34,671 nt of DNA from Malassezia furfur (taxonomy: Eukaryota), in the NCBI GenBank assembly GCA_052055015.1, contig JBQJIT010000076.1; one strand, 5' to 3'. The translations under genes and the position numbers were made by a program. The notes below the pieces were generated by a model. The model had not been told where the DNA came from, made no database searches, and saw nothing but the letters and a program-made list of their open reading frames with translations. Below are positions 2,532-31,735 of this stretch, piece after piece. Each line of letters opens with the position of its first letter. Position 1 is the first letter of the stretch.

Positions 2532-3419
2532 ATGAAGTTCCTTTCGACTGTTACTGCCGTTACTTCGGCTCTCGCGATCATTTGCGCTGACTCGGCTTCG
2601 GCCAAGTTCGGTTTCGGTATCCCTTGGGGTGCCGACAACCGCTGGGCTAAGAACATCCCCGATGGTGTTATTAGCTGGTACCACCACTGGCAGTTGGGCT
2701 ACGTGGCTGAGATGCCCAAGGACGTTGAATACGTCCCTACTTTCTGGGGTCCGCAGAAGTGGCTGGACTGGGAGTTCCGCAAGGCGGAGATTTCCAAGCA
2801 CAACTCGAGCCACATTCTCGCTTTCAACGAGCCTGACGTGGCCTCGCAGGCCAACCTCGACCCGAAGACCGCTGCTCACCTTTGGATGAAGGAACTCCAG
2901 CCGTACGCGCTGAAGGGCAAGAACGTTAGCTCGCCTCAGATGGTGTACAACATGGACTGGCTCGAAGAGTTCATGGACGAGTGCAGCGAGTGCAAGATCA
3001 GTTTCATGGCCCTTCACTGGTACGGTTCGTACAAGGACATGGACAAGTTCAAGGCATGGGTTCAGAACGTTCACAACAAGTTCAAGCTCCCCGTTTGGGT
3101 TACCGAGTTCGGTATCACCTCGGCCTCGAACCCCTCGCAGGAGCAGGTGAATAACTTTGCGTCTGAGGCCATTCAGTGGCTCGAGGGTCAGGACTACGTT
3201 GAGCGTGCTGCCTGGAACGGTGGCTACGACATCTCTAACCCTCCCGACGACTACGCGACTCCTCTCAACGCGCTGTTCTCGAACGGTGGCCAATTCCGCT
3301 CGCTCGCCAACGTCTGGCTGCCCCAACTCTCGATCAAGCTTGCTCAGCGGAACCACCAGCGCCGTGGTCACTCGCTTCACATGGTGAAGCGTGCCCGTGC
3401 TGAGGAGCGCTCGGCTTAA
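2532..3419 (+). CDS. Secreted glycoside hydrolase family 128 (Asl1-like beta-1,3-glucanase), 295 aa
   Basis: Signal peptide MKFLSTVTAVTSALAIICADSASA. GH128 motifs SWYHHW, YVPTFWG, AFNEPD (acid/base Glu), ALHWY, PVWVTEFG (nucleophile Glu), YVERAAW. Strong C/G-ending codon bias. The upstream extension to 2283 in the track is not credible. Confidence 0.9.
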   Translation: MKFLSTVTAVTSALAIICADSASAKFGFGIPWGADNRWAKNIPDGVISWYHHWQLGYVAEMPKDVEYVPTFWGPQKWLDWEFRKAEISKHNSSHILAFNEPDVASQANLDPKTAAHLWMKELQPYALKGKNVSSPQMVYNMDWLEEFMDECSECKISFMALHWYGSYKDMDKFKAWVQNVHNKFKLPVWVTEFGITSASNPSQEQVNNFASEAIQWLEGQDYVERAAWNGGYDISNPPDDYATPLNALFSNGGQFRSLANVWLPQLSIKLAQRNHQRRGHSLHMVKRARAEERSA

Positions 3420-4092: not shown

Positions 4093-7000
4093 ATGGCTTC
4101 GCTAGAAAGCGATGATCTGCGTGTGCAAGTAACGCATACGAGTGGGTCAACACGTGTTCTCTATTTGCCTATCGGTGCACCTGTCGAGTACGCATGCCTT
4201 TGATCTAACCCCTAGACGCCTTGTCACCGCCGGTGAGGACCATCTCGTCCGCGTTCTCCCCACTGAAGCCACTGCTTCTGATGTGAATCCTATCGTAATT
4301 GAGGATGCCACACGTCCAATGACCTGTATTGATGCCGATGCAGAGTATCTCGTGACGGCCTCCGAAGATGGGTCGGTGCGGCTGTACAAGCATGGATCTG
4401 CTGAGCTAGTCCAAATCATTCGGCGCGAAGTACTCCCTGTGCGTTGTGTTGCAATTGAGAGCGCTAGTCGCCATGGAGCACTCCCACGTACTGCGGTATG
4501 CTCGGACGAACTCATTGTTCGTGTCGTCAACGCAGCGGACCCTCGCAGTATCGTGCTGCTTACCGGTCATTCTCGCGGTGTCCGAGCCGCCAGCTGGAGT
4601 CCGGCTCTGCCGCTTTTGCTTACTTCTGGGTCGGACGGGGATGTACGCGCATGGGATATGTCAGACACTGAGCCTCGGTGTGTCAAAGTCCTACAGAATA
4701 TGCTGCCGGCGCTGCGGCCCGAGAGCGAATTTTCTTCCTCCGTGGTTTGGCATCCATCCGGTGCCATTTTCGCCATGCCTCTGCGCACTCAGGAGATTGC
4801 TTTGGTTCGCGCTCCTATCGCAGCTGCCGAGATGAATGGGGAACATGTCTGGGAATCGGTGGTGATATTCGGGAGCGCCAGCAACACGACATCCGCGGAA
4901 CAGAAAGTGCCGAGCGGCCTGGTTTCTGCCCTCGCCTTTTGTCCTAATGGGCGCTACCTTGCTGCGGCCACGGAGGACATGCAGGTGACTGTTTGGGCGC
5001 TCGATTCTCGTCGCGTGCTTCGGGTGCAACAGGCTGAGGCGCTCGTCACTGGGCTCAGCTGGCACCCCACTCAAGACACACTCGCATGGACCGACGCACA
5101 AGGCCAGCTTGTTCGCTGGGAATCGGTGATAGGAGCCACGCTTCCGAGCCCGTTCGAACACCTCCAATTTGCCCATGCCCAAGCGGAACCAGACGCTCCT
5201 GCGGAGGAGCTGGAGGAAGACCTCGGTGACTTATTTGATGACACGCCCATTGATGAACCCGTGAGCCACAAACCGGTGACGCGGAAACGCCTCGCACCTC
5301 GTGCAGATGCTGATGTACTCAACCAGCCCAGCTTCCAGCCGGGGTCTACTCCGATGGAGGCCCAGCGACGATACCTGAGTGTCTCCACGTTGGGCACTTT
5401 GACGGCGGTCGACCAGGACACGCACCAGACGATATCTTTTGAGTCGTATGACACTTCACAGCGGCGCAATTTCCGGTTCACGGACCACTATGGATACAAG
5501 ATGGCCAGTATGGCACCGCAGGGAATTCTGTTTGCATGCGAGGCGGAGTCGGAAAACCCCAGCACCATCTTTTATCGTCCATTTGAAGACGTTCCGGGTA
5601 TCCAGACGGAATGGTCCATCAATTTGGCACCGAATGAGAATGCTGTGGCAATCACGCTGGGCGGTATCGTCAACGCAGGCTCATATGCGGATGTACATGT
5701 TGGCTCGACCAACATGGTCGACGAAGGCAAGACTTCCGCAGCCACTGCGGTCGTGGCCACGTCACAAGGTTACTTGAGGTTCTTTGGAATGAGTGGGATG
5801 CAGCGCTACGTTTGGTCGCTGGGTCTTCCGGTCGTTACGCTAGCAGCCAGTCCCTCTGCTGTCTTTGTGGTCTACCGCACTGCGAATGTGTCCCCCAATC
5901 ACGTCCATCTTGGGTACCTGCTGATCGATCTCACGCAACTTGCGACGCTTCAGCAAGGGCCGCTTCCCCTGGTTCCCGACGCGACCTTGACCTGGGCTGG
6001 CTTCAATGAGTTGGGTGCACCTGCGGTTTTTGATTCAATGGGTACGTTGTTTGTACTGGACCGCGCTTGGCGTCCTGGCCAAGCACGTTGGGTGCCAGCG
6101 CTGGATACCTCCCATGCACTGCTTCCGACACGAGCTGGGGCCGCAGAGGAGAGTGAGACGCGAGCTCCTCGGGTGCGTTGTTGGCCTATCAGTGTCACAG
6201 CAACGCACTTGCTGGGTCTGTTGCTTCCTATGTCGAGAACATATCCTCAAGTGACCACCGCACGACCGGTTGTCCAGGAACTGGCTATGTCGATATGCGT
6301 TACCCAGCGGGAAAACGCAGCTACACCTTTGGAAGAAGCAGCTCTGCGCTCATCTCTGCTTGCAAATGCGACGCGGGATGCTCGTGCTGCGACTGGCGAC
6401 GAGACACTTCGCGCATCCCGTTTGCCAATGGAGCAGAGCGATCCGAACGCACTCGAGATTGAAGCTGATAAAGCCCTATTACAGCTCGTTCAGCTTGCTT
6501 GCAAAGCCGATCGGTATGCCCGAGCATTGGACGGAACACGTGCGTTGCATTCTGAGACTACCTTGGATGCTGCGCTGAAGATCGCGTCCTTCTTCCATTT
6601 ACCGAGCTTGGCGGACCGCCTAGAGTTGGTCCGTGCACCTTTAGCGGTTCGCAAGGAGCTTGAGGAAGAAACCACAGACCGTGCTTGCGGTGTGGATGCA
6701 TTACTTCGTAACACGGCGCGACTCCCCGTGCCTGTCGCAGAGCAAATGATAAGCACAACGACAACTGTTCCGTCGTCTCAGCGACTCCAAGAAAACTTCT
6801 TGCCCCGACGTCCCAGCGAAACGCATGGGCGTTCTGCGCTTGCACAAGAAGGTCTTGCACAAAAGCAAGCCATGGACTCTTCTCAAACCGCCCCCTCGAG
6901 CGGCACCATTTCTACACAGACGCCTCCTCCCACTAACGACTCGTTACCTACGCCAGCGCCGCCGACTCGTATCAACCCGTTTGCACGAACTCAGACGGTG

Positions 7001-8485: not shown

Positions 8486-9700
8486 ATGCCCCATTCGGAC
8501 GCGGAGGACACGACGCCCGAGCCGGTGCCCGAGCCCAGCACTTCGGCGCTGCGCAACGCCCGCCCGGATCGAGAGTTATCCCCAGAGCCTGACCAAGACT
8601 TGAATACGGCGCGGGGCGCTCATCAGGTTTGGCTGGTCAAAGTCCCCAAATTTCTCATTGACGGTTGGAGTCAGGTACACCAAGACGACGTGCGACTTGG
8701 AACCGTTCGGGTATACGAGTACGTTGGTCGGCTAACCCAGTCCCGATCAGAATGGAAATCAGCGCATGGAGCTGCTGCTCCCGGATGCACCGGAGCCAGC
8801 CATCCCGGTCACCGATCCTTCGGAGCGGGCTCAGTTTGCCAACATACCACGCACGTATGACATGCGGCTCACGTCGAGCACGCAGGATACCTACTTGAAA
8901 AACCTTTATGCATTCCAAGAACAACTACTGGATGATGAAGATTCCATTGATGCTGGCAACGACGACGACATTGACGAAATGAGTGCAACCGACTTTTATC
9001 GGAAGCGCAATTTGGGGGCGGGGCCCGCACGCATTCCAAACAAGAAGAAACGTACGCAGTTTCGACTGACACAGGCGTTACCGCACTGACGGGTACAGTC
9101 ACCAACGAAACCGCCCTCAAGCCGCAGCACACCGTGGCGGAAGACAGGAAGACCGACACCAAGAAGCCCATGGCCTTGGGGTCGCGCTCGTTGATCACTC
9201 CCGAGTACCGCGAGATTCTGCGCAACCGACACAAAAACTCTACTACACCCAAGCGTACCGTGAAAATGATGGAGGAGACAGATGCGGGCGTGAACAACAT
9301 GCTTGCTGCCGGTGTGGGCAAAGGCCACGTCAAGTCGCGTGCCGCGAACCTTGTGTATCAGGCGTCGCAGGCACGGTCGAACCAACCACCAGAGAAGTTT
9401 GCTCGTATGCCGCGCAACGAGCTGCTCGATCTTCTGTTCTCGCTCTTCGATCGATACAAGCACTGGTCGCTCAAGCGCCTTCGCGAGGAGACGCAGCAGC
9501 CCTATGCTTATCTCCGCGAGGTACTGCTTTCCATTGCGAACCAGCACCACAATGGACCCTATGCGGGCTCATGGAGCCTGAAGCAAGAATTTGCTGATGC
9601 ACGGCGCGATTCCGGCTCCTCGCAGGCCGCTGGGCCAAGCATTAACCCACCGGAACCTGCCAAAGACGAGCCGGACGCGGAGGAGATGGACGACGTTTAG
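8486..9700 (+). CDS. TFG2: TFIIF beta subunit (RAP30), 389 aa; exons 8486-8718, 8741-9051, 9075-9700
   Basis: VWLVKVPKFL N-terminal motif and winged helix ARMPRNELLDLLFSLF..WSLKRLREETQQP.AYLREVL. Introns of 22 and 23 nt join three track ORFs in frame. Confidence 0.92.
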
Positions 9701-10614: not shown

Positions 10615-11911
10615 ATGCGCGCAGGCCACCGCCAGTCGACCCAGGCACAGTCTGGGCGACAAACCCGCAAGCTTGATAAAAAAGGGCAAGAAAATATGCA
10701 TGCATCGTCCGAAGATGAAGAGTCGAGTCCCGAGATTGTTGAGTCGCTGCCAAGTGTCAGTGATCAGGACGACGAAGCTGCTGAGGAGGCCAGCTTGGGC
10801 GAAAGCGAGTCGGACGACGAGGATGTCGGCCCGTCATATGCACAGTTTGTGGATGAAGACGACCTGGACGAGGAAGATGAGACTTCGGAAGAATCAGAGC
10901 CGCAATCAGATTCCGACGACGAAGAGGTACGTTCCATCCACTGATCCAAGGCAATGCTCCGGCAAGGTATGCCTGTAAACCATTTGTTAACCCAGAAATC
11001 GAAGCAGTTCCTTTCCATGACCTCATGAAAGCCAAGCGTAATATGCGGAATTCCAAGGAAAAGCAGGAAATGGACACTGACGTACTACGTGCTCGACGCG
11101 AAGAAGCTAAGCAGCAGCTGCGCGAATTACGCCCAGATGGAGATCGTGGACCCAAAAAGACACCCGAAACGAAGAAGGAACAGCACATTGAATCGCGAGA
11201 GCACAAGAGTGCACCGACCGTGATGTCTTCGCGGCGGCCAGTTTCTCGGGCACGTACAGTCGTTCAACCGGTGCAGCCATCTAAAGGCCGTGACCCGCGC
11301 TTTGACTCCCTCTCCGCGGGTCCCGTGAATCTCGATCTCTTGTCCAAATCGTACAAGTTCTTGCCTGAACTCTACGAAAAAGAACTCAAATCACTCAAGG
11401 CGACCCACGACAAATTGAAGCGAATGGAGGCGCACCATGCTGGTCCGCATGCCAAGAGCGAGCAAGCACTAAAAATACGGGAAGAGAGACAAAACGTGGA
11501 GTTGGCGCTCCGCCGTGCAGAAAGCCAGCGCAATGAGAGACTCCGTCGCGAAACGGAGCGCAGTGTCAAGTCGGAGATCAAGAAAAACAATCAGCGCCGC
11601 GTCGATGCGGGGCTGCGTCCGTATTTCCCGAAAAAAGGTGCGTCGAACATACTCTGACATCAGCCGAACGCACTGCACAGGTCTTGCGACACAAATACGA
11701 ACGCCTTTCACACGAGCACGGTAAGGACGGCGCTTCTGGTGCTCTTAAGAAAGCAATGGAGCGCAAGGTACGCAAAGACGCACAAAAAGACCGCAAATCT
11801 TTGGACGCCGCTTTAGGAGGAGGGTCAAGGACAGACTTGGCTGCGTCTAAACGAAGCGGGGTGCATGATGCAGCAGATAGACCGCCGCGCAAGCGCGGGC
11901 GCCGTGGGTAG
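10615..11911 (+). CDS. RRP36: rRNA biogenesis protein Rrp36, about 405 aa; exons 10615-10926, 10951-10966, 10996-11637, 11664-11911
   Basis: Acidic N-terminus, then KSAPTVMSSRRPVSRAR, RDPRFDSLS, SYKFL, PYFPKK. Introns of 24, 29 and 26 nt restore the frame. Confidence 0.88.
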
Positions 11912-11986
11912 CGTTCTAATTGAACAGAGGACTGTGGCCGTGCGACTGTCGGTAGTCATGTGGAGGTCCTACCGCTCTTGACGAGC

Positions 11987-12713
11987 ATGGGTGCCTCGAG
12001 TTCGAAGGGTCCTCGGATCACAAAGCACGACCGTGCTGTATTAGAGTGCGTATGCTTCATTGACACAGCCTTAAATTGCAACGTGATAAACTGCGTCAAT
12101 ACCAGACCAAGGTTGGTCTATCATGACTCACGCAGCTTCAAATCGTGCTTGATAAGGAATACGAAATCACGCGTGATGCAATCGCGGCAGGCCGGAAGAC
12201 ACAAGCCCGTCTGGCATTGCAGAGAAGAGCGTACCAGCGTGGTCTTATAGATCGGACCGAAAACCAACTCACGACGCTTTTGGAACTTGTCTCTACCATT
12301 GAGTTCGCGCAGCTCGAGCAGAGTGTCATGCATGGCCTGGAGCAAGGCAATCAGGTATTGAAGGAAATCCACAAGGAGACCAACCTTGAGCGTGTCGATG
12401 CACTCATGGATCAGACTGCTGAAGCACAATATTATCAACGTGTATGTCACTACTCTCACACCAGGAAATCGACGATCGTCTGGCGTCAAAGCTGTCAGCG
12501 GATGAACAAGAGGAAGTGGAACGAGAGTTGGCGGCACTGGCTGCAGAGGCGCAGCCTCAGGCCGAGGCCGAGACAAAACAGCAGACAATACCCACTATGC
12601 CATCGGCGCCTACCACTGTGCCCTCGGAAGCACAGGAGACGAACCCGATCGGTCAAGCCCAACTCCCTCTCGACAATCCGAGAAAACAATTGCACACCGA
12701 AGCAAGCACATAG
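11987..12713 (+). CDS. VPS20: ESCRT-III subunit Vps20 (CHMP6), 218 aa; exons 11987-12045, 12069-12111, 12136-12441, 12465-12713
   Basis: Myristoylation-type start MGASSSK, ITKHDRAVLDLKLQRDKLRQYQ, LVSTIEFA..GLEQGNQVLKEIHKE. Introns of 23, 24 and 23 nt. Confidence 0.92.
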
Positions 12714-13798: not shown

Positions 13799-14621
<823 letters not shown>

Positions 14622-15352: not shown

Positions 15353-17684
15353 ATGTCTGCGACGCATGAGCCCGCGCGGGCTTATGTCGTGTCCGGCGGC
15401 TCAGGGTCAGGACCAGGAGAAGCTTCATACAACTCCACTTCGCTTCCAGATATCCTGCGTCGTTCAGGATCATCCAACAAGCGGAAAAAGCGGCGTGCAG
15501 CGATCGAAAATGACAAAATTCTCTCTAAAATCGAACTGATTCAGGACCTAGAATTTCCTGAAGCCAGTAACAAAATCCGCTTCACACGGGATGGTCTCAA
15601 TATTATGGCAACCGGGACGTACAAGCCGCAAATTCGTGTATGGGATTGCGAGCAGCTCAGCTTGAAATTTGAGCGTCACACGGACGCTGAAAACGTCGAC
15701 TTCCAAGTACGTCTTTTGCACCCTGACTCAGATCTTGTCGGACGACTGGACCAAATCCTTGCACCTACAGAGCGATCGTTCGCTTGAGCTCCAGGGCCAG
15801 GGGGGTATTTTGACGACGGTGCGCCTTCCGCGCTTTGGTCGCGCTTTGGGCTATCATTTTCCCAGCGCCGACGCACTGGTCGGTGCATCTAGCAACGAAA
15901 TTTACCGCCTGAATTTGCACCAGGGACAATACTTGGCGCCCTATGTGCTAGGACAGCGGGGAAACTTGGTAAATGGCTGCAATGCGATTGACGTGAATCC
16001 GGCGCACGGCCTTTTGAGCTTTGGGACGGATGGTGAGGGCGTCGTCGAGCTGTGGGACCCACGCATGCGACGACAGGCAGGTGCCCTCAGTATTGCGACG
16101 CAGACAGTCTTGGATGCATCACTGCTTGCATCTCGGCGTCAATTACCCGGCCTCTTCAGCAAGGATGCCGATGCGGATGCCGTTTCGCGTGCGTCTCAGT
16201 CGCTGGCGACCACGGCGCTGGCAAGCGCAGAAGATGGTTTGAATATGGCTGTGGGAACAAGTACGGGCCATGTCCTCTTGTTTGACTTGCGTATGGACCA
16301 GCCTTACTTGTGCAAGGACCAAGGTTTCGGTCTCCCCGTGCATTCGTTGTCCTGGCCGGGCGACCGCAACGCTGCTGCCGCCGCGGGAACAATGGGCGCC
16401 GATGCACACGCACGCTCCGAATCGATGAACAAGGTACTTAGCGCCGATGCTAAAGTCATCAAAGTTTGGGACAAGACGACAGGCGAGAATGTGGTTTCGG
16501 TGTCACCACCCTCTCCGTCGACAAACCTCAACGATGTGCAGCAGTACCCTGGAAGTGGTCTGATCTTTGCGACCGTCGAGGCAACGCAGATGGCTGCGTG
16601 GTATGTGCCTGCTCTGGGGCCTGCACCACGGTGGTGCAGCTTCATTGACAACGTCACAGACGAGATCGATGCAGCCGATGCCGCTGGTGCAGGGGGCGGT
16701 ACGAATGCCTACGAGGATTTCAAGTTTGTGGACCAAGCAGAACTGGAACGCCTCGAACTTACGCACTTGGTGGGCACACCCTTGCTGCGCCCCTACATGC
16801 ACGGCTACTTCTTGTCGCTGCGCTTGTATGAGCGTGCGCGGCTCATGGCTCACCCCACGGCCTACCAGGAGGCCAGGCAGCGCGCGATCCAGGCTAAGAT
16901 CGAACGCGAGGCCGAGAGCCGTGTTCGGAGCGTGGCCAATGCACCCAAACTGCACAAGAGTGTACAGGTTAACAAGGCACTAGCCGAACGATTGGCCAAG
17001 GGTCAGACCAAACACAAGGAAGATACCAAGCTACTGGAGGACCAACGGTTCAAGGAGCTCTTCACAAACCCCGAGTTCCAGGTGGACGAAACGAGCAAGG
17101 AGTTTGCGATGCTCAACCCAAGCACGGCGCAGAACCAGACGCAAAAGCCAGCGCTGCGCGAGACCAGTCGCCGCATGGTTCCTGCCATGGAGGAGGAGAT
17201 CGAAAGCGATCGCGAATCCCTCGATCCAGACGAAGAAGAGGCGCGAGAACTGAGCGACGAGATCCGCACCCCCTCCACTCCCCCGCGGTCGATTCCCCAA
17301 GCCAAGGCACCCAAGGTTGCGAAGCATACACCACGCCTGCTGGACGACGACTCCATGGCGCTGGACGAGCGCGTACAAACGCTTGGCGAACGCGCCGGTC
17401 AGCAAAAGCCCCGGACCTCATCGGCGCGCGCTTCGCAGGACGATGGACCGCAGGGTGCAGCCAGTCTTGCGTGGACGCCGTCGTCAGCGCCGAGCAAGAA
17501 GCCCAAGGCGGGCAAGCGCGCGTCGAAAGAAGATACATTTGGTATGGGTCTGTCCAAAGGTGCTGGCGCGGATCAGGGCTATGGAGCGGATGCACTGGAC
17601 GAGGAAGCACGGTTCGGTCGCACCCAGCGCCGCAAGCCTGGACGCAGTGCGAGCCGCAACGTCATGCGCTCTACCACCAAGTAG
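15353..17684 (+). CDS. ENP2: Ribosome biogenesis protein Enp2/NOL10, 768 aa; exons 15353-15706, 15732-17684
   Basis: [86 protein letters not shown]. One 25-nt intron. Confidence 0.93.
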
Positions 17685-19336: not shown

Positions 19337-19474
19337 ATTCAGGTAGGAGACAAAGCTTCGCTCGGCGCGATGAACCCTACACGTGCATGGACCCGCGGCT
19401 GTATCCCCACCGGCCCCGGCTGAGTCAGCCGCGTGCTTCTCCACAACAGTGTGGAGGTGCACGGCAGGTTGACG

Positions 19475-22060
19475 ATGGCCGACGTGCACAACCGTCGAGC
19501 TCGTCTAACATCCGCATATCATGAGCTTGGGCGTCAGTTAACGTCAGGGAACTTCACCGTCATAGGTAACTACACCCTACAGCGGAATATCGGACAAGGG
19601 ACGTACGGAAAAGTACGGCTGGCAACACACCGTCTGACCAACTCACGCGTTGCCGTGAAGCAAATTCCGAAAGAGCATGTCGCCAGTCTCACGCGCGAAA
19701 TTCACCATCACCGGAGAATGCACCACCAAAATGTACTCCAACTTTATGAAGTAATACAGTCGGAGTCCTGCATCTGGATGGTGACTGAATTGTGCGCAAA
19801 TGGAGAATTGTACGATTATGTCGTGGATCATGGGAGTTTAAGCGAGGCGGAAGCCAAAGAGCTATTTGGCCAACTATGCCTTGCCGTATCCTATATCCAT
19901 TCTCACGGCGTTGTCCACCGCGATTTGAAGCTCGAAAACATCTTATTGGACTCCAACAATCAGATTAAACTCAGCGATTTCGGCTTCACGCGGGAATTTG
20001 AGCCGCATCAGCTGCTTCGTACGCGATGTGGTACCACGGCCTATGCAGCGCCTGAAATGCTTGCAGGAAAACCATACCAAGGCCCGGAAATCGACATTTG
20101 GTCGCTGGGTGTAATCCTCTTCGTGCTGGTATGCGGCTACTTGCCGTTCGACGACGACAACGAGCCTGCAATGCAATGGAAGATTGTGAATGACCCTGTA
20201 TTGATCCCTGATACCCTTTCGGACAATCTACAGGATTTACTTACATGGATTCTTCAAAAGGATGGGTCAAAGCGCCCAACCATTTATCAAATTCTTTGCC
20301 ACCCATGGTACCAAGCCCCGTCACCATCAATGGTACAGCGGTCGTCTTCCGAGCGCCTACAGCATCCTTTTCTGCATATGCGCCCACTATCCCCAAACGA
20401 GATGGAGCTAAATTATACTCAACCCTCCAACTTTGTTGCGATGCTCACGCAGCCAGCTTATATACCCTTTGAGAGCCCTGTGGAGCAACAACTTTTCCAT
20501 ATGCTCCAGACACTTGGCTTTGCGGTGGGCCAAATTCGCTACAGTGTGCAGACCAACGCTTGTGATGCGGCGGGTGCACTCTGGTGGCTGTTGTTGCACC
20601 GTGCTAAAAGTTCGCCGCTGGAATCGAATGCGCTTGGTATCATGTCGGACGATTTCAACAAACCTTCCCCTTCTTCTGACTCTCAGAGTGCGGTTAGCTC
20701 GCGACGTACATCCTTATCAAGAGGCACTCATGATGGTACCTCGCCGCATCCACGCATGGCTCCTATTGTTTCCCTTGCCCCCGTCGCATCCAGTGACCGC
20801 GCTGCGCCTCCCATTCACGAACATACTACCCAAGGTACGCAGTTCCTGGTCCCGAATCTCTCGTATGCAACAAACGAGCAAGCTGTGTCGCCTAAGCGAA
20901 ACTCCTCTGTGATTTCCTCGGTCAAGTCATGGCTCAAAAGGGATCGGCGCGAGTCCAGTGTCGATGCACGACTCTCTACTCCCATCTCCAGCACACCCAC
21001 GTCCCACCCGACTGGAATGTCTCAGCCTCTTGCAAAAGGAGAAGAGCAGTCGGACTCACCACTGGCTCCACCCTTGCTGCCGGCCACGCTCGTTGCGAAC
21101 AAATCGTCTTTCTCGCTTGCACCGACGGCATCGACTTCCAGCGGCGTGTCTCCTTCCCCCTCTTTCCGTGAACTCCCGCAAGTCGAAAAAGCATTGTCGC
21201 TGGAACAACATTTTCGCATGCCATCGCGACACTTTGACACACCCGTCCTGCGGCGCACTTCAAGCATGGCGCGTCCCGGAAGCGCCTACGGCCGACGTTT
21301 GTCGGTGGGTAGCGTCGCATCTGTCTCCTTGCAGCGCAATCGCTCGTCAAGTCTGAGTAGCCCGCGCTCGGTTACACCTGCTTCTCATTCCCGCATGAGT
21401 CGTCAGTCATCATGGGCCTCACTGCACCACCCTCGCCCACGTCGTCGGTCAGAATCTACGGCCCAGCGCAAAGCATTCCGACAGGGATCAGCACTGAGCC
21501 CCGACATTGGTTTGCTTTCTAGGCGTGCCTCAGGACGGAGCGATTCTTCGGACGTTCCTCGGAGATCGCGGCCTGTTTCGATGGATGAACAGGCATTTGC
21601 TGCTTTTCAGCGCCAGCGAAGCTTCTCAAGTGACGGCGGTACCGTGCTGGGACCGCGTCTTGCGCATTCGCCCCTGCACAGTCCACGTGTGCCTAGAGTT
21701 GTCTCGCCAAGAGTCCGTGCCTCGCTGGTGCAGAAACATGCGCACAAGGCGCATTCCACGCGGCCATTGCGGCAGCGCACGAACCGGGTGAAGCTGAGTG
21801 CGGAAGATGACTGGATCGATGAGGAGGTTTCTTACGCCGGGGGACTTGGCCAACCCAACGAAACTGCCAACGACGTTTCGGACTGGATGGAGCTGGGCAA
21901 GCAACGCCGTCGGCGTGGCTCACCATGCCCACCTCGGATGCTGCATGCGAACAAAACATTTATGGAGGATGCACGTCCTTTAGATACTTCGGCGGCGCTA
22001 CGCACCAAGCTTATTCGCAGGGACCAACATACACCCGTCATTGAAGAGGAAGAGCCGTGA
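19475..22060 (+). CDS. Ser/Thr protein kinase, CAMK-like (MARK/SNF1-related) with a long Ser/Arg-rich tail, 861 aa
   Basis: IGQGTYGKV, VAVK, HRDLKLEN, DFGF, TRCGTTAYAAPE, DIWSLGV, LPFDDD, plus a UBA-like segment (LQTLGF..ALWWLLL). First ATG at 19475. Confidence 0.9.
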   Translation: MADVHNRRARLTSAYHELGRQLTSGNFTVIGNYTLQRNIGQGTYGKVRLATHRLTNSRVAVKQIPKEHVASLTREIHHHRRMHHQNVLQLYEVIQSESCIWMVTELCANGELYDYVVDHGSLSEAEAKELFGQLCLAVSYIHSHGVVHRDLKLENILLDSNNQIKLSDFGFTREFEPHQLLRTRCGTTAYAAPEMLAGKPYQGPEIDIWSLGVILFVLVCGYLPFDDDNEPAMQWKIVNDPVLIPDTLSDNLQDLLTWILQKDGSKRPTIYQILCHPWYQAPSPSMVQRSSSERLQHPFLHMRPLSPNEMELNYTQPSNFVAMLTQPAYIPFESPVEQQLFHMLQTLGFAVGQIRYSVQTNACDAAGALWWLLLHRAKSSPLESNALGIMSDDFNKPSPSSDSQSAVSSRRTSLSRGTHDGTSPHPRMAPIVSLAPVASSDRAAPPIHEHTTQGTQFLVPNLSYATNEQAVSPKRNSSVISSVKSWLKRDRRESSVDARLSTPISSTPTSHPTGMSQPLAKGEEQSDSPLAPPLLPATLVANKSSFSLAPTASTSSGVSPSPSFRELPQVEKALSLEQHFRMPSRHFDTPVLRRTSSMARPGSAYGRRLSVGSVASVSLQRNRSSSLSSPRSVTPASHSRMSRQSSWASLHHPRPRRRSESTAQRKAFRQGSALSPDIGLLSRRASGRSDSSDVPRRSRPVSMDEQAFAAFQRQRSFSSDGGTVLGPRLAHSPLHSPRVPRVVSPRVRASLVQKHAHKAHSTRPLRQRTNRVKLSAEDDWIDEEVSYAGGLGQPNETANDVSDWMELGKQRRRRGSPCPPRMLHANKTFMEDARPLDTSAALRTKLIRRDQHTPVIEEEEP

Positions 22061-22087: not shown

Positions 22088-23725
22088 TTATTTAGCCACT
22101 TTATCGAGCAATACCGCCAAAATGAGGAAGAGCAAGGCGAGTCGCTTCAAGTTAGGTGCCACCAACTTCAGAGTCTGTTACGTTAGATCTTCTGGCAAAT
22201 TAAACAAGTAACTTACTGATCTTTTGATCGGTGCGTCAATCGAAGTCGCCGAACGGGTCGGGTTCTTCGGGCGGCCAAAGAGCATCCATTTGCCCAGTAT
22301 CAGTTGGAAGAGGGACAATTTGGTCGTCGTGTACGGCGGATACCGCATCGCCATAATCTTCTCGACCAGATTACCAACAATGCCCGAGGCAGGAGCATCC
22401 ACATATGCTCGCTCGTGAGAAAAGCAGACAAAGCCTTTCTTGCCATGGTATGAGCCATAGCCTGCAGGGCCAGTACCACCAAACGGCAGGTCGTTAATCA
22501 CGAAGTGCAGCAGCATGTCGCCACGCATGGCAGCTCCGCTACGCGTATACCGTAAAATGTAGTCCTTTGTTGCATCCGACTTGGTGAACATATACAGCGC
22601 CAGTGGCTGGTCATTCGCATTCACAAAGTCGACCGCCTCACGAATGTGATCATATGGTACCAATGGCAAAACTGGCCCAAAGATTTCTTCCGACATGGTC
22701 GAGTCAGAACCGTCGACATCTTTGACAACGGTTATCGGCAAGAATTTCGTCGCCTCGTCTGCATCCTTGGTGCCTCCGAACACAACAGTACCTTGCGTCT
22801 TTTCCATGAGAGAATAAACGCGCTTCCAGTGGCGGTCATTGACGATACGACCGAGATCTTTGACATTCTTGTCCATTGTCGGCCAGCGCTCCTTGGCAGC
22901 TTTAATGATTTCAGTCACAAATTTGTCTTGCACCGATCGCTCGATGAGAACATAGTCCGGAGCAATACAGGTCTGTCCGGTGTTGAACGATTTTGCCCAG
23001 AGGACACGCTTTGCTGCGATGCTCAGGTCTGCCGAGCTGTCGATGATCACCGGTGATTTTCCGCCCAGCTCTAAGGTCGTGGGGCAAAGCCATTTGGCCG
23101 CCTTTTCTGCAATGATGCGGCCTACTGTGCCATTTCCCGTGTAGAAGATATGCTCAAAACGCTGTTCAAGCAACGCAGTTGATTCCTCAATACCTCCATT
23201 TACCACTCGTGTCATTTCAGGGTCCAAATACTTGGGCCAAAGGTCCGCAATAAGTTGTGCCGTGTGCGGGGCAAGCTCGGATGGCTTCAATACCACCGTA
23301 TTACCAGCGGCAATGGCACCCACAACAGGGCCCAACTGCACTGCCATAGGATAATTCCATGCGCCAATGATCAGAACAGTGCCCTGCGGGTCCTTGAGAA
23401 CCTGCTTCTTGTGAAGCATGTAGGCAGCCCCCCCGGAAACAGACTTAGGCTTCGCCCACTTCGACAGGTTGTTGATGGCATCAATAATCTCGTTCTTTAC
23501 TGTAATAATCTCGCCGAAGCCCGTCTCCATCGGCGGACGCCCAAGGTCTTGCATAATTGCCTTGGTGAAATCCGCTTCATGGTCCGCGATGAGAAATGCG
23601 AATTGTTTCAGCTGGTTCTTCCGATACTCCAAGCTGCGTGTTTTTCCTGTCAAAAAAGACGAACGCAGCCCTTCGACGATCTTAGGGATGTCTCCCACAG
23701 GCGTATTCTTCACAACCGAGCTCAT
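22088..23725 (-). CDS. ALDH3-family fatty aldehyde dehydrogenase (Hfd1/FALDH-like); exon 1 is 23725-22217, last exon is either 22174-22088 (tail anchor, 531 aa) or 22191-22183 (-SKI, 505 aa)
   Basis: IIGAWNYP, KPSE, FYTGNGTVG, LELGGKSP, GQTCIAPDY (catalytic Cys), EEIFGP, PFGG. Donor GTAAGT at 22216 with two branch/acceptor units. Confidence 0.9.
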
Positions 23726-30344: not shown

Positions 30345-31735
30345 ATGAACGCGCAGCTGCTCAGTGCGTGCGCGCCACTTACCCAGATCCTTTTGCGCGC
30401 GATACGCCGGAGCGCGTAGAATCGACGCTTGATAACGCATACGCAAACTGCCTCGCGTATAGCTCGAAAAAGGGGCTCTTTCCAGGGAGTTACCTCGCGG
30501 TTGGGCGCACTGATGGATTCGTGACTGTGTGGGATGTGGAGACGCGCAACGTGCTGCGCTGGTTCGGGGGGCATGTCAAAACAGTGACAAGCGTGAGCTG
30601 GTCGCCGTACAATCGATACCTTGCGACCTCGTCGCTGGACTGGAACGTGCACATTTTGGACCTCGCTCAAGGTCGCATCGTGCGCTCATTGCACTTTGAC
30701 GCGCCGGTGGTGCAGGTGCTCTTCGCGCCGGACACGAGGTACGCGTCTTGCTGATACAGCTGTCGCATGGTGGTTCTCCTGGACTCACGCGAGGCCGTGC
30801 TGGTGTCGGTCAGCGCCAACGAGCCGACACGCGTGCCGCTGGCGGTGGGTGAAAGTGCAACGGCCGCGTGCTTTACACCATCGGGCGCCTACCTGTTTCT
30901 TGGCACGACCAAGGGAAATGTTCTCATGTTGGATGCCGTGTCAGGCACCATGCAGGGTGAGCCTGTGCCGATCGGTGGCTCATCGGTCCGCCAGCTCGCG
31001 TTCGATGCAACAGGGCGGCACTTGGTCGCTAACTTGAACGACCGCACCTTGCGCACCTTTAGCGTGACTGAAACGCGCGGCAAGCCCTCACCCTATGCGC
31101 TTACGCAGCGATCCAAGTTTCAGGACCTCGTGGGGCGCACACCATGGAGTGGGATCTCATTCAGCGCCGACAGCGAGTACGTCATGGGCGGCGCAGCACA
31201 GGACGCGGGGCATCATATATACCTCTGGGACCGGGACGCGGGCGTCTTGGTCAAAATTCTCGAAGGCCCCCGGGAGCCGCTAATCTCTGCGCAATGGCAT
31301 CCCGTTCAGCCACAGATCGCCTCGATCGCGGCGTCCGGCGACATTTACTTGTGGAAGACGAAGTGGACCGAAATTTGGAGTGCCTATGCGCCCGGGTTCG
31401 AGGAGCTCGAGGAAAACGTCGAGTACGAAGAGCCAGAAGACGAGTTCGACTTGGTAGGTGTCCATTGCTCACCACAGGAGGACGAAAGTGAGCTGAGCCG
31501 CAAAAAGCAGGATGAGGAAGAGGCGGTCGTGAATGTCTTTTCTACAGGCCCTGCCTCGGATGCGTTGGTGCTGCGGAGCATGCAACCCTACGTGCCGCCG
31601 ACGCGCCGCTCCATATGGGCGCCGCGTTTGGGTGGGGACACCCAGGATGTGTCTATGGAGGACGACGATGACCAGTTTACCTTTTTCCTCGCGCCGCTCC
31701 TCGAGCCGGCCGATGCATCCGAGCGCCATGTATAG
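30345..31735 (+). CDS. SWD1: COMPASS subunit Swd1/RBBP5 (WD40), about 440 aa; exons 30345-30363, 30387-30738, 30760-31453, 31478-31735
   Basis: Spliced start MNAQLLNPF..PE, YLAVGRTDG, GHVKTVTSVSWS, KFQDLVGRTPW, LVKILEGPRE, WSAYAPGFEELEENVEYEEPEDEFD. Introns of 23, 21 and 24 nt. Confidence 0.92.

Follow-up and report, generated by a model that had tools for sequence, protein, structure and literature searches.

A candidate peroxisomal signal behind a possible second 3′ splice site in the last intron of a Malassezia furfur fatty aldehyde dehydrogenase gene

Alternative 3′ splice sites that switch on a type 1 peroxisomal targeting signal (PTS1) are known in fungi, as was correctly noted in a preliminary description of the DNA analyzed here, a 34,671-nucleotide (nt) stretch of Malassezia furfur (contig JBQJIT010000076.1, GenBank assembly GCA_052055015.1; hereafter the window) whose minus strand carries a fatty aldehyde dehydrogenase (FALDH) gene with two candidate acceptors in its last intron. 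In MDH2 of Yarrowia lipolytica (YALI0E14190g; YlMDH2), two 3′ splice sites lie 4 nt apart, and removal of the longer intron yields a protein ending in -AKI; cDNA and RNA-seq confirmed both forms, the first RNA-seq experiment counting 1181 and 648 reads over the two junctions, and their ratio changed with the carbon source (Kabran et al. 2012, PMC3372373). The same yeast, as summarized in two reviews, produces by alternative splicing of HFD2 the proteins HFD2A, located in the endoplasmic reticulum (ER) and the peroxisome, and HFD2B, located in the peroxisome (Iwama et al. 2014). In Ustilago maydis, glycolytic enzymes acquire a cryptic PTS1 by alternative splicing or by read-through, as a review relates (Freitag et al. 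2012, via PMC3798809). For the animal members of the FALDH family, published work describes a human ER form (FALDH-ER) and a peroxisomal form (FALDH-PO) that have a transmembrane helix in common and differ in the charge of the tail, the peroxisomal form binding PEX19 (PMC5450235), and three forms of Caenorhabditis elegans ALH-4 (A, B, and C) that differ only after the common helix (PMC8291716).

The Malassezia gene resembles YlMDH2 in that one donor is followed by two acceptors in the last intron, that the choice between them shifts the C-terminal frame, and that one of the two products would end in an x-K-I type PTS1. It differs in the size of the shift (17 nt against 4 nt) and in what the shift would decide, which is a membrane anchor versus a matrix signal here and cytosol versus peroxisome there; moreover, the YlMDH2 junctions were counted in cDNA and RNA-seq, whereas the present case is known from sequence alone. 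With HFD2, as the reviews portray it, the window gene shares the enzyme family, the fungal setting, and a single gene whose splice products would differ in their distribution over ER and peroxisome, but Y. lipolytica has four HFD genes while each named Malassezia species was represented by one model among our homolog matches. The U. maydis enzymes belong to the same subphylum and likewise have a PTS1 added to part of the enzyme pool; unlike FALDH, they are soluble cytosolic proteins, as far as the review goes. The preliminary description had named neither YlMDH2 nor HFD2A/B, which are closer precedents than mammalian ALDH3A2, which it had named. The ALDH3A2 parallel stood in part, since in human ALDH3A2 and in ALH-4, both members of this family, C-terminal alternative splicing does set the organelle. 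It failed in that all of the animal isoforms keep the transmembrane helix, the two mammalian ones differing in tail charge only, and in that their peroxisomal targeting depends on tail charge and PEX19 and not on a PTS1 and Pex5.

We consider it probable, though far from certain, that the window gene yields the tail-anchored product only and that its proximal acceptor is silent or used at noise level. On this view, splicing would go to the distal acceptor and remove 42 nt, an intron whose CTAAC branch site matches the consensus; FALDH would thereby gain an ancestral C-terminal tail anchor and sit on the cytosolic side of a membrane. The CAG 25 nt into the intron would be peculiar to the window's lineage; it is situated within the donor-to-branch spacer, has only a weak branch motif to serve it, and probably stays unused or is spliced only at background level. 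The S-K-I end is then to be regarded as a candidate PTS1, not as an established second targeting signal. We observe the layout and the family, we find that the tail and the place of the intron are conserved, and we see no proximal site in the relatives examined; which acceptor the spliceosome would choose, and how often, we infer.

The gene is, by its sequence, an ALDH3/FALDH ortholog (ALDH3A2/Hfd1 type) of a Malassezia yeast, and oxidation of long-chain fatty aldehydes is its predicted function. The product of exon 1 carries an aldehyde dehydrogenase domain (Pfam PF00171, Aldedh; E 1.2e-76) that spans residues 12-436 and thus nearly the whole protein. Its top solved relative was human FALDH, 4QGK (E 3.3e-124, residues 18-471 aligned), with ALDH3A1 entries ranking next, which places the closest class at class 3/FALDH and not at other ALDH classes. 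The ELGGKSP and GQTCIAPDY blocks, which we take to hold the catalytic Glu and Cys, are identical between the window protein and 4QGK in the alignment. Together with the Malassezia homologs, these results confirmed the identification as a fatty aldehyde dehydrogenase. One of the models retrieved, P0003, is the window's own gene model: it is 100% identical up to the donor and stops at the in-frame TAA of the intron. The nearer relatives of the window protein are P0004 (90%), P0123 (a fragment, 89%), and P0005 (88%), and the closest named homologs are those of M. obtusa (77%) and M. psittaci (76%). Because each named Malassezia species occurs only once among the matches, the FALDH gene looks single-copy in Malassezia.

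Exon 1 ends ...APIKRS, its last codons being AAA AGA TCA (K R S, 22225-22217) on the minus strand, and the donor comes next (Table 1). The 42 bases that follow, 22216-22175, read GTAAGTTACTTGTTTAATTTGCCAGAAGATCTAACGTAACAG on this strand. The layout is as first described, with one GTAAGT donor, a CAG at 25 nt that leads to S-K-I-stop, and a CAG at 42 nt that leads to a hydrophobic tail; the spacing is also equal as claimed, each branch-like motif lying 7 nt before the end of its intron. The TAA that stops the S-K-I frame sits within the distal CTAAC. An extra AG at 22190-22189, overlooked previously, would give S-I-stop if splicing occurred there, and without any splicing the frame continues for 12 codons to the TAA at 22180-22178.

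Splicing to the distal acceptor adds a tail whose 12-residue hydrophobic core (mean Kyte-Doolittle value, 3.47) has K-R and D-K on its two sides, and 5 residues follow the core. Tail anchors are recognized by a single hydrophobic segment, flanked by charged residues, in the last 30 residues or so, a pattern that this tail shows; 12 residues are few for spanning a bilayer. To place the intron among relatives, we used an alignment of 29 full-length clusters of the Malassezia level (P0004-P0032). Directly after the position at which exon 1 ends, 26 of the 29 have V (a GTN codon), that is, the public models enter the intron without annotating it; two others, the NCBI models P0014 and P0015, are spliced to a hydrophobic tail, and P0010 has a different end. 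With a hydrophobic tail defined as a 12-residue window of mean Kyte-Doolittle value ≥2.8 within the last 35 residues, such tails were found in 4/29 Malassezia-level clusters and in 11/34 clusters of other Ustilaginomycotina (P0033-P0066). Most of the tail-less models end a few codons inside the unannotated intron, and we noticed that the tail anchor is lost in 24 of the 26 Malassezia-level clusters that run into this ultra-short intron.

In P0004, P0005, and P0123, the model reads in frame through an intron of 14 codons (VCRLLNARKDLTLQ and VCHLLNPREGLTWQ) into tails that are near-identical to that of the window, and the D/G-L-T of the read-through in P0004 and P0005 is compatible with the distal CTAAC motif. 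A scan of genomes for orthologous DNA returned only a Streptomyces ALDH of 43% identity (L005), which is irrelevant, whereas a scan of metagenomes returned four loci, three of which (L001-L003) represent a single gene from one species, the fourth (L004) being a partial match of 25 residues. The species of L001-L003, at 65% identity, has a 34-nt intron, GTACGTACCTAACTTGTTTTTGTTGACACGAAAG, followed by an exon that encodes a tail anchor, TALLRIVCRKKLFLAVLLLAVVLRVYG. Given the conserved intron position and the tails in relatives, it is well supported by these comparisons that the distal acceptor gives the ancestral, conserved tail-anchored product, whose insertion into a membrane is predicted; the membrane anchor proposed for the distal acceptor was thus substantiated by the intron position in 26/29 clusters and by hydrophobic tails across Ustilaginomycotina.

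Two further features of these introns were noted. The 42-nt intron of P0004, P0005, and P0123 is a stop-free multiple of three, retention of which would insert 14 residues and leave the tail in place, and the in-frame TAA at 22178-22180 is unique to the window in comparison with these three. A run, ACTTGTTT, stands shortly after the donor in both the window intron (22205-22210 region) and the L001 intron (3019-3026), and the L-L/F-N read-through of P0004/P0005 is consistent with this T-rich stretch, which may represent a conserved U-rich element or a coincidence.

The strength of the two candidate sites was then judged against introns of the same DNA. Introns of M. sympodialis are short: its manually curated annotation contains 5350 introns with a mean of 30 bp, 99% of them supported by RNA-seq (PMC5389616, Table 2). 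In the window, whose G+C content of 57% made unfiltered scans too noisy, 15 introns were curated partly by eye from frame-joining scans, the second of which gave 129 candidates. Thirteen of the 15 are 21-28 nt long, which bears out the earlier proposal of 25 nt as an ordinary length here, and the other two are 39-40 nt. The distance of the branch A is 14-32 nt to the donor and 5-10 nt to the end of the intron; in the thirteen short candidates, a CTNAY branch motif precedes the acceptor by 5-10 nt and follows the donor by only 14-21 nt. C-T-N-A-Y was present in 15/15, although, with a set chosen partly by eye, the branch-motif statistics, this figure included, are partly circular.

A 7-mer matrix built from these 15 introns, whose own branch motifs score 5.2-9.3 bits, gave 7.15 bits for the distal ATCTAAC, well inside the local range. 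The proximal GTTTAAT reached 2.18 bits, below that range, and shows T where all 15 local introns show C. Because 2.2% of all 7-mers in the window score at least as high, the proximal branch/acceptor unit is no more than what chance provides in a 42-nt intron. If used at all, the proximal site should be the weaker of the two. The idea that the two units represent a meaningful duplication was rejected on the same ground, as the proximal motif is at chance level.

The preliminary description had expected the SKI/SKL frame to be kept in orthologs. This was examined by exhaustive back-translation of the relatives' in-frame read-through of the intron and directly in the DNA of L001-L003. For P0004 and P0123, whose homologous codons read R-K-D-L, 0 of the 144 codon combinations gave an AG at the matching position, and no AG in codons 6-12 could give a PTS1-like end, the only possible ends being K-S-I and K-S-T. 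For P0005 (R-E-G-L), a GAG is the sole possible acceptor there, and splicing to it would end the protein in S-K/R-[A,D,G,V], which is not a PTS1. The intron of L001-L003 has no internal AG. The expectation therefore failed in P0004, P0123, P0005, and the L001-L003 species, which are all of the relatives that could be examined: in none of the four relatives whose intron is readable or inferable was a PTS1-like end conserved. The cryptic PTS1 signals of U. maydis, unlike the site in the window, are reportedly conserved across many fungi. Pairwise identity is 0.90 between the window protein and P0004, 0.88 between the window protein and P0005, and 0.86 between P0004 and P0005. Because the window is closer to each of these two than they are to each other, a single gain of the proximal site in the window's lineage would be the simplest account of these sequences. 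No spliced form, the short one included, was found in two protein searches with short C-terminal fragments (8 and 5 matches), which returned only the read-through relative P0123 and an odd model of M. brasiliensis, P0124. The latter, an NCBI model, has 172 residues only and an unrelated C-terminus after ...RPKNP, which suggests a mis-spliced or fragmentary annotation of the FALDH ortholog.

The foremost alternative is that both acceptors are used, so that one gene would give rise to a tail-anchored FALDH and to an anchor-less S-K-I form imported by Pex5, a recent and lineage-specific dual targeting. We regard this as unlikely on present sequences, yet as a coherent candidate. Stated as an origin, namely that in one lineage a point change in the donor-to-branch spacer made a second acceptor and that the resulting 17-nt shift swaps the tail anchor for a weak matrix PTS1, it is likewise a doubtful proposition. 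The lack of conservation of the acceptor and the PTS1 end in P0004, P0123, P0005, and the L001-L003 species, the weak proximal branch motif (2.18 bits), and the failure to find a spliced short form among the protein fragments searched all speak against it. A weak site beside a strong one, on the other hand, would fit regulated alternative splicing, of which that arrangement is the usual layout.

Several other observations, besides the circularity of the branch-motif statistics, weigh against our preference for the distal acceptor alone. The PTS1-like frame is rare: the two strands of the window together hold 1681 YAG sites, only 2 of which are followed by [KRH][LIM]-stop, and of this pair the proximal CAG alone also has a donor (GTRNGY 18-45 nt upstream of the YAG) preceded by an S/A/C codon, here that of S. 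A [SAC][KRH][LIM] C-terminus arises only in the hypothetical proximally spliced product. Its S-K-I tripeptide is directly preceded by basic residues, which favor PTS1 function. The size and the geometry of the proximal intron are typical as well, 25 nt being the modal size and the distances of 17 nt from donor to branch and 8 nt from branch to end being ordinary locally. In the O. polymorpha catalase, -SKI is a weak PTS1 and a change to -SKL makes import more complete (PMC13343957); the claim that -SKI can serve as a fungal PTS1 was hence upheld, for a weak signal. YlMDH2 gains its -AKI through an alternative 3′ site, and in A. adeninivorans, whose intron has the same position, the YlMDH2 study found no alternative 3′ site (PMC3372373), so that restriction to one lineage does not exclude function. 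The FALDH family itself has known peroxisomal forms, namely HFD2A and HFD2B of Y. lipolytica, which localize differently, and the mammalian and worm isoforms.

PTS1-ended FALDH homologs also exist. Nine of 120 homolog models (P0003-P0122) end in [SAC][KRH][LIM], compared with about 0.5 expected from composition, which is the last point against the distal acceptor alone. Five of the nine are short Mortierellomycota forms (P0098, P0099, P0113, P0120, and P0122) that end in -AKL or -SKL and have no hydrophobic tail; two are from Tilletia, where the hydrophobic tail itself ends in -SKL or -SRL; and the PTS1-like end of P0046 is probably an intron read-through. The Malassezia-level model P0010, which is 66-71% identical to the Malassezia orthologs compared, ends ...R-K-S-R-L at the point where 26/29 clusters read V; it could come from a genome without the intron and the tail, or be modeled on a proximally spliced transcript, which would mirror the event first proposed for the window. 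The nine represent few independent events, yet they show, at the level of predicted proteins, that anchor-less PTS1-ended FALDH exists in fungi. The Mortierellomycota ALDH3 forms have the architecture of the hypothetical short form, the PTS1 following a short linker behind the catalytic domain and the RYPPY helix; they differ in being separate short models (487-492 amino acids) beside longer ones, and they are 46-48% identical to the window protein.

Given the intron size, the geometry, the rare frame, and the close precedents, a PTS1 made by proximal splicing is mechanistically credible. Of the preliminary description as a whole, the layout, the family, the tail anchor, the intron size, and the plausibility of a PTS1 survived; the conservation of the frame, the strength of the proximal branch site, and the close parallel with ALDH3A2 did not. 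If both acceptors were used, the choice between sites 17 nt apart would let a lipid-dependent yeast of the skin send the product of its one FALDH gene to two compartments, and this single gene would supply the matrix of the peroxisome as well as membranes on their cytosolic side. A switch from tail anchor to PTS1 would be added to the known sorting modes of the FALDH family; the mechanism would be a known one, not a new one. Because sister species whose protein is 88-90% identical lack the site, the dual targeting would be very young and near its origin, a datable example of how a cryptic peroxisomal signal emerges. If only the distal acceptor is used, it still holds that the tail anchor is missing from most public FALDH models of Malassezia and related fungi, which end within an ultra-short intron left unannotated, and localization inferred from them would be wrong. 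No related publication was found for Malassezia, peroxisome, and fatty aldehyde dehydrogenase in the literature searched, and the case at hand appears to be unpublished as far as that literature goes.

A further possibility is regulated retention of the intron, in which unspliced mRNA, translated to the stop at TAA 22180-22178, would give a soluble, anchor-less cytosolic enzyme and splicing the anchored form. The window intron does have an in-frame stop where the 42-nt introns of the sister species are stop-free, and early stops occur in the retained frame of most relatives too; such stops, however, are to be expected anyway, both at random and because branch motifs may include TAA or TGA, and the retained tail has no recognizable signal, which leaves this account improbable. 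A last account would have splicing remove chiefly the 25-nt intron, the enzyme of this species reside mainly in peroxisomes, and the tail exon be a relic; it agrees with 25 nt being the modal intron size in the window but is very improbable, as the tail frame is intact, close to that of relatives at 88-90% identity, and strongly hydrophobic in its core, and the distal branch site is consensus while the proximal one is weak; the tail exon was thus rejected as a relic.

Table 1. Features of the FALDH gene and its last intron, and the curated introns of the window (candidates joined by frame)
Feature	Position	Strand	Remarks
Exon 1, FALDH (ALDH3A2/Hfd1-type)	22217..23725	-	503 codons, from ATG at 23725 to last codon TCA (Ser)
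5′ splice site GTAAGT	22211..22216	-	common to both candidate introns; V (GTN) at the same point in 26/29 Malassezia-level models
Proximal branch-like motif TTTAAT	22199..22204	-	branch A 17 nt from donor, 8 nt from proximal acceptor; 2.18 bits
Proximal candidate acceptor CAG	22192..22194	-	ends 25-nt intron 22216-22192; homologous place without AG in P0004/P0123, GAG at most in P0005
Codons AAG ATC TAA (K, I, stop) after proximal splicing	22183..22191	-	protein would end S-K-I
Distal branch motif CTAAC	22182..22186	-	branch A 34 nt from donor, 8 nt from distal acceptor; ATCTAAC 7.15 bits
In-frame TAA ending the intron-retained reading	22178..22180	-	L or W here in sister species
Distal acceptor CAG	22175..22177	-	ends 42-nt intron 22216-22175; Q (CAG) kept in P0004, P0005, P0123
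Exon 2, C-terminal tail anchor (predicted)	22088..22174	-	28 codons TLKLVAPNLKRLALLFLILAVLLDKVAK, then stop at 22090-22088
Candidate introns, 21-28 nt	4188-4215, 8719-8740, 9052-9074, 11638-11663, 11904-11927, 12442-12464, 15707-15731, 30739-30759	+	frame joining, by eye
Candidate introns, 21-28 nt	33397-33374, 31781-31757, 18634-18610, 17728-17704, 15024-15002	-	frame joining, by eye
Longer candidate intron, 39-40 nt	13858-13897	+	frame joining, by eye
Longer candidate intron, 39-40 nt	13251-13213	-	frame joining, by eye

Downstream of the FALDH gene, a convergent gene is present on the plus strand, with an open frame at 19424-22060 that is kinase-like by sequence and a stop only 27 nt from that of the FALDH tail exon. 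With so short a gap between the convergent stops, the 3′ untranslated regions of the two genes must overlap each other's coding sequence.

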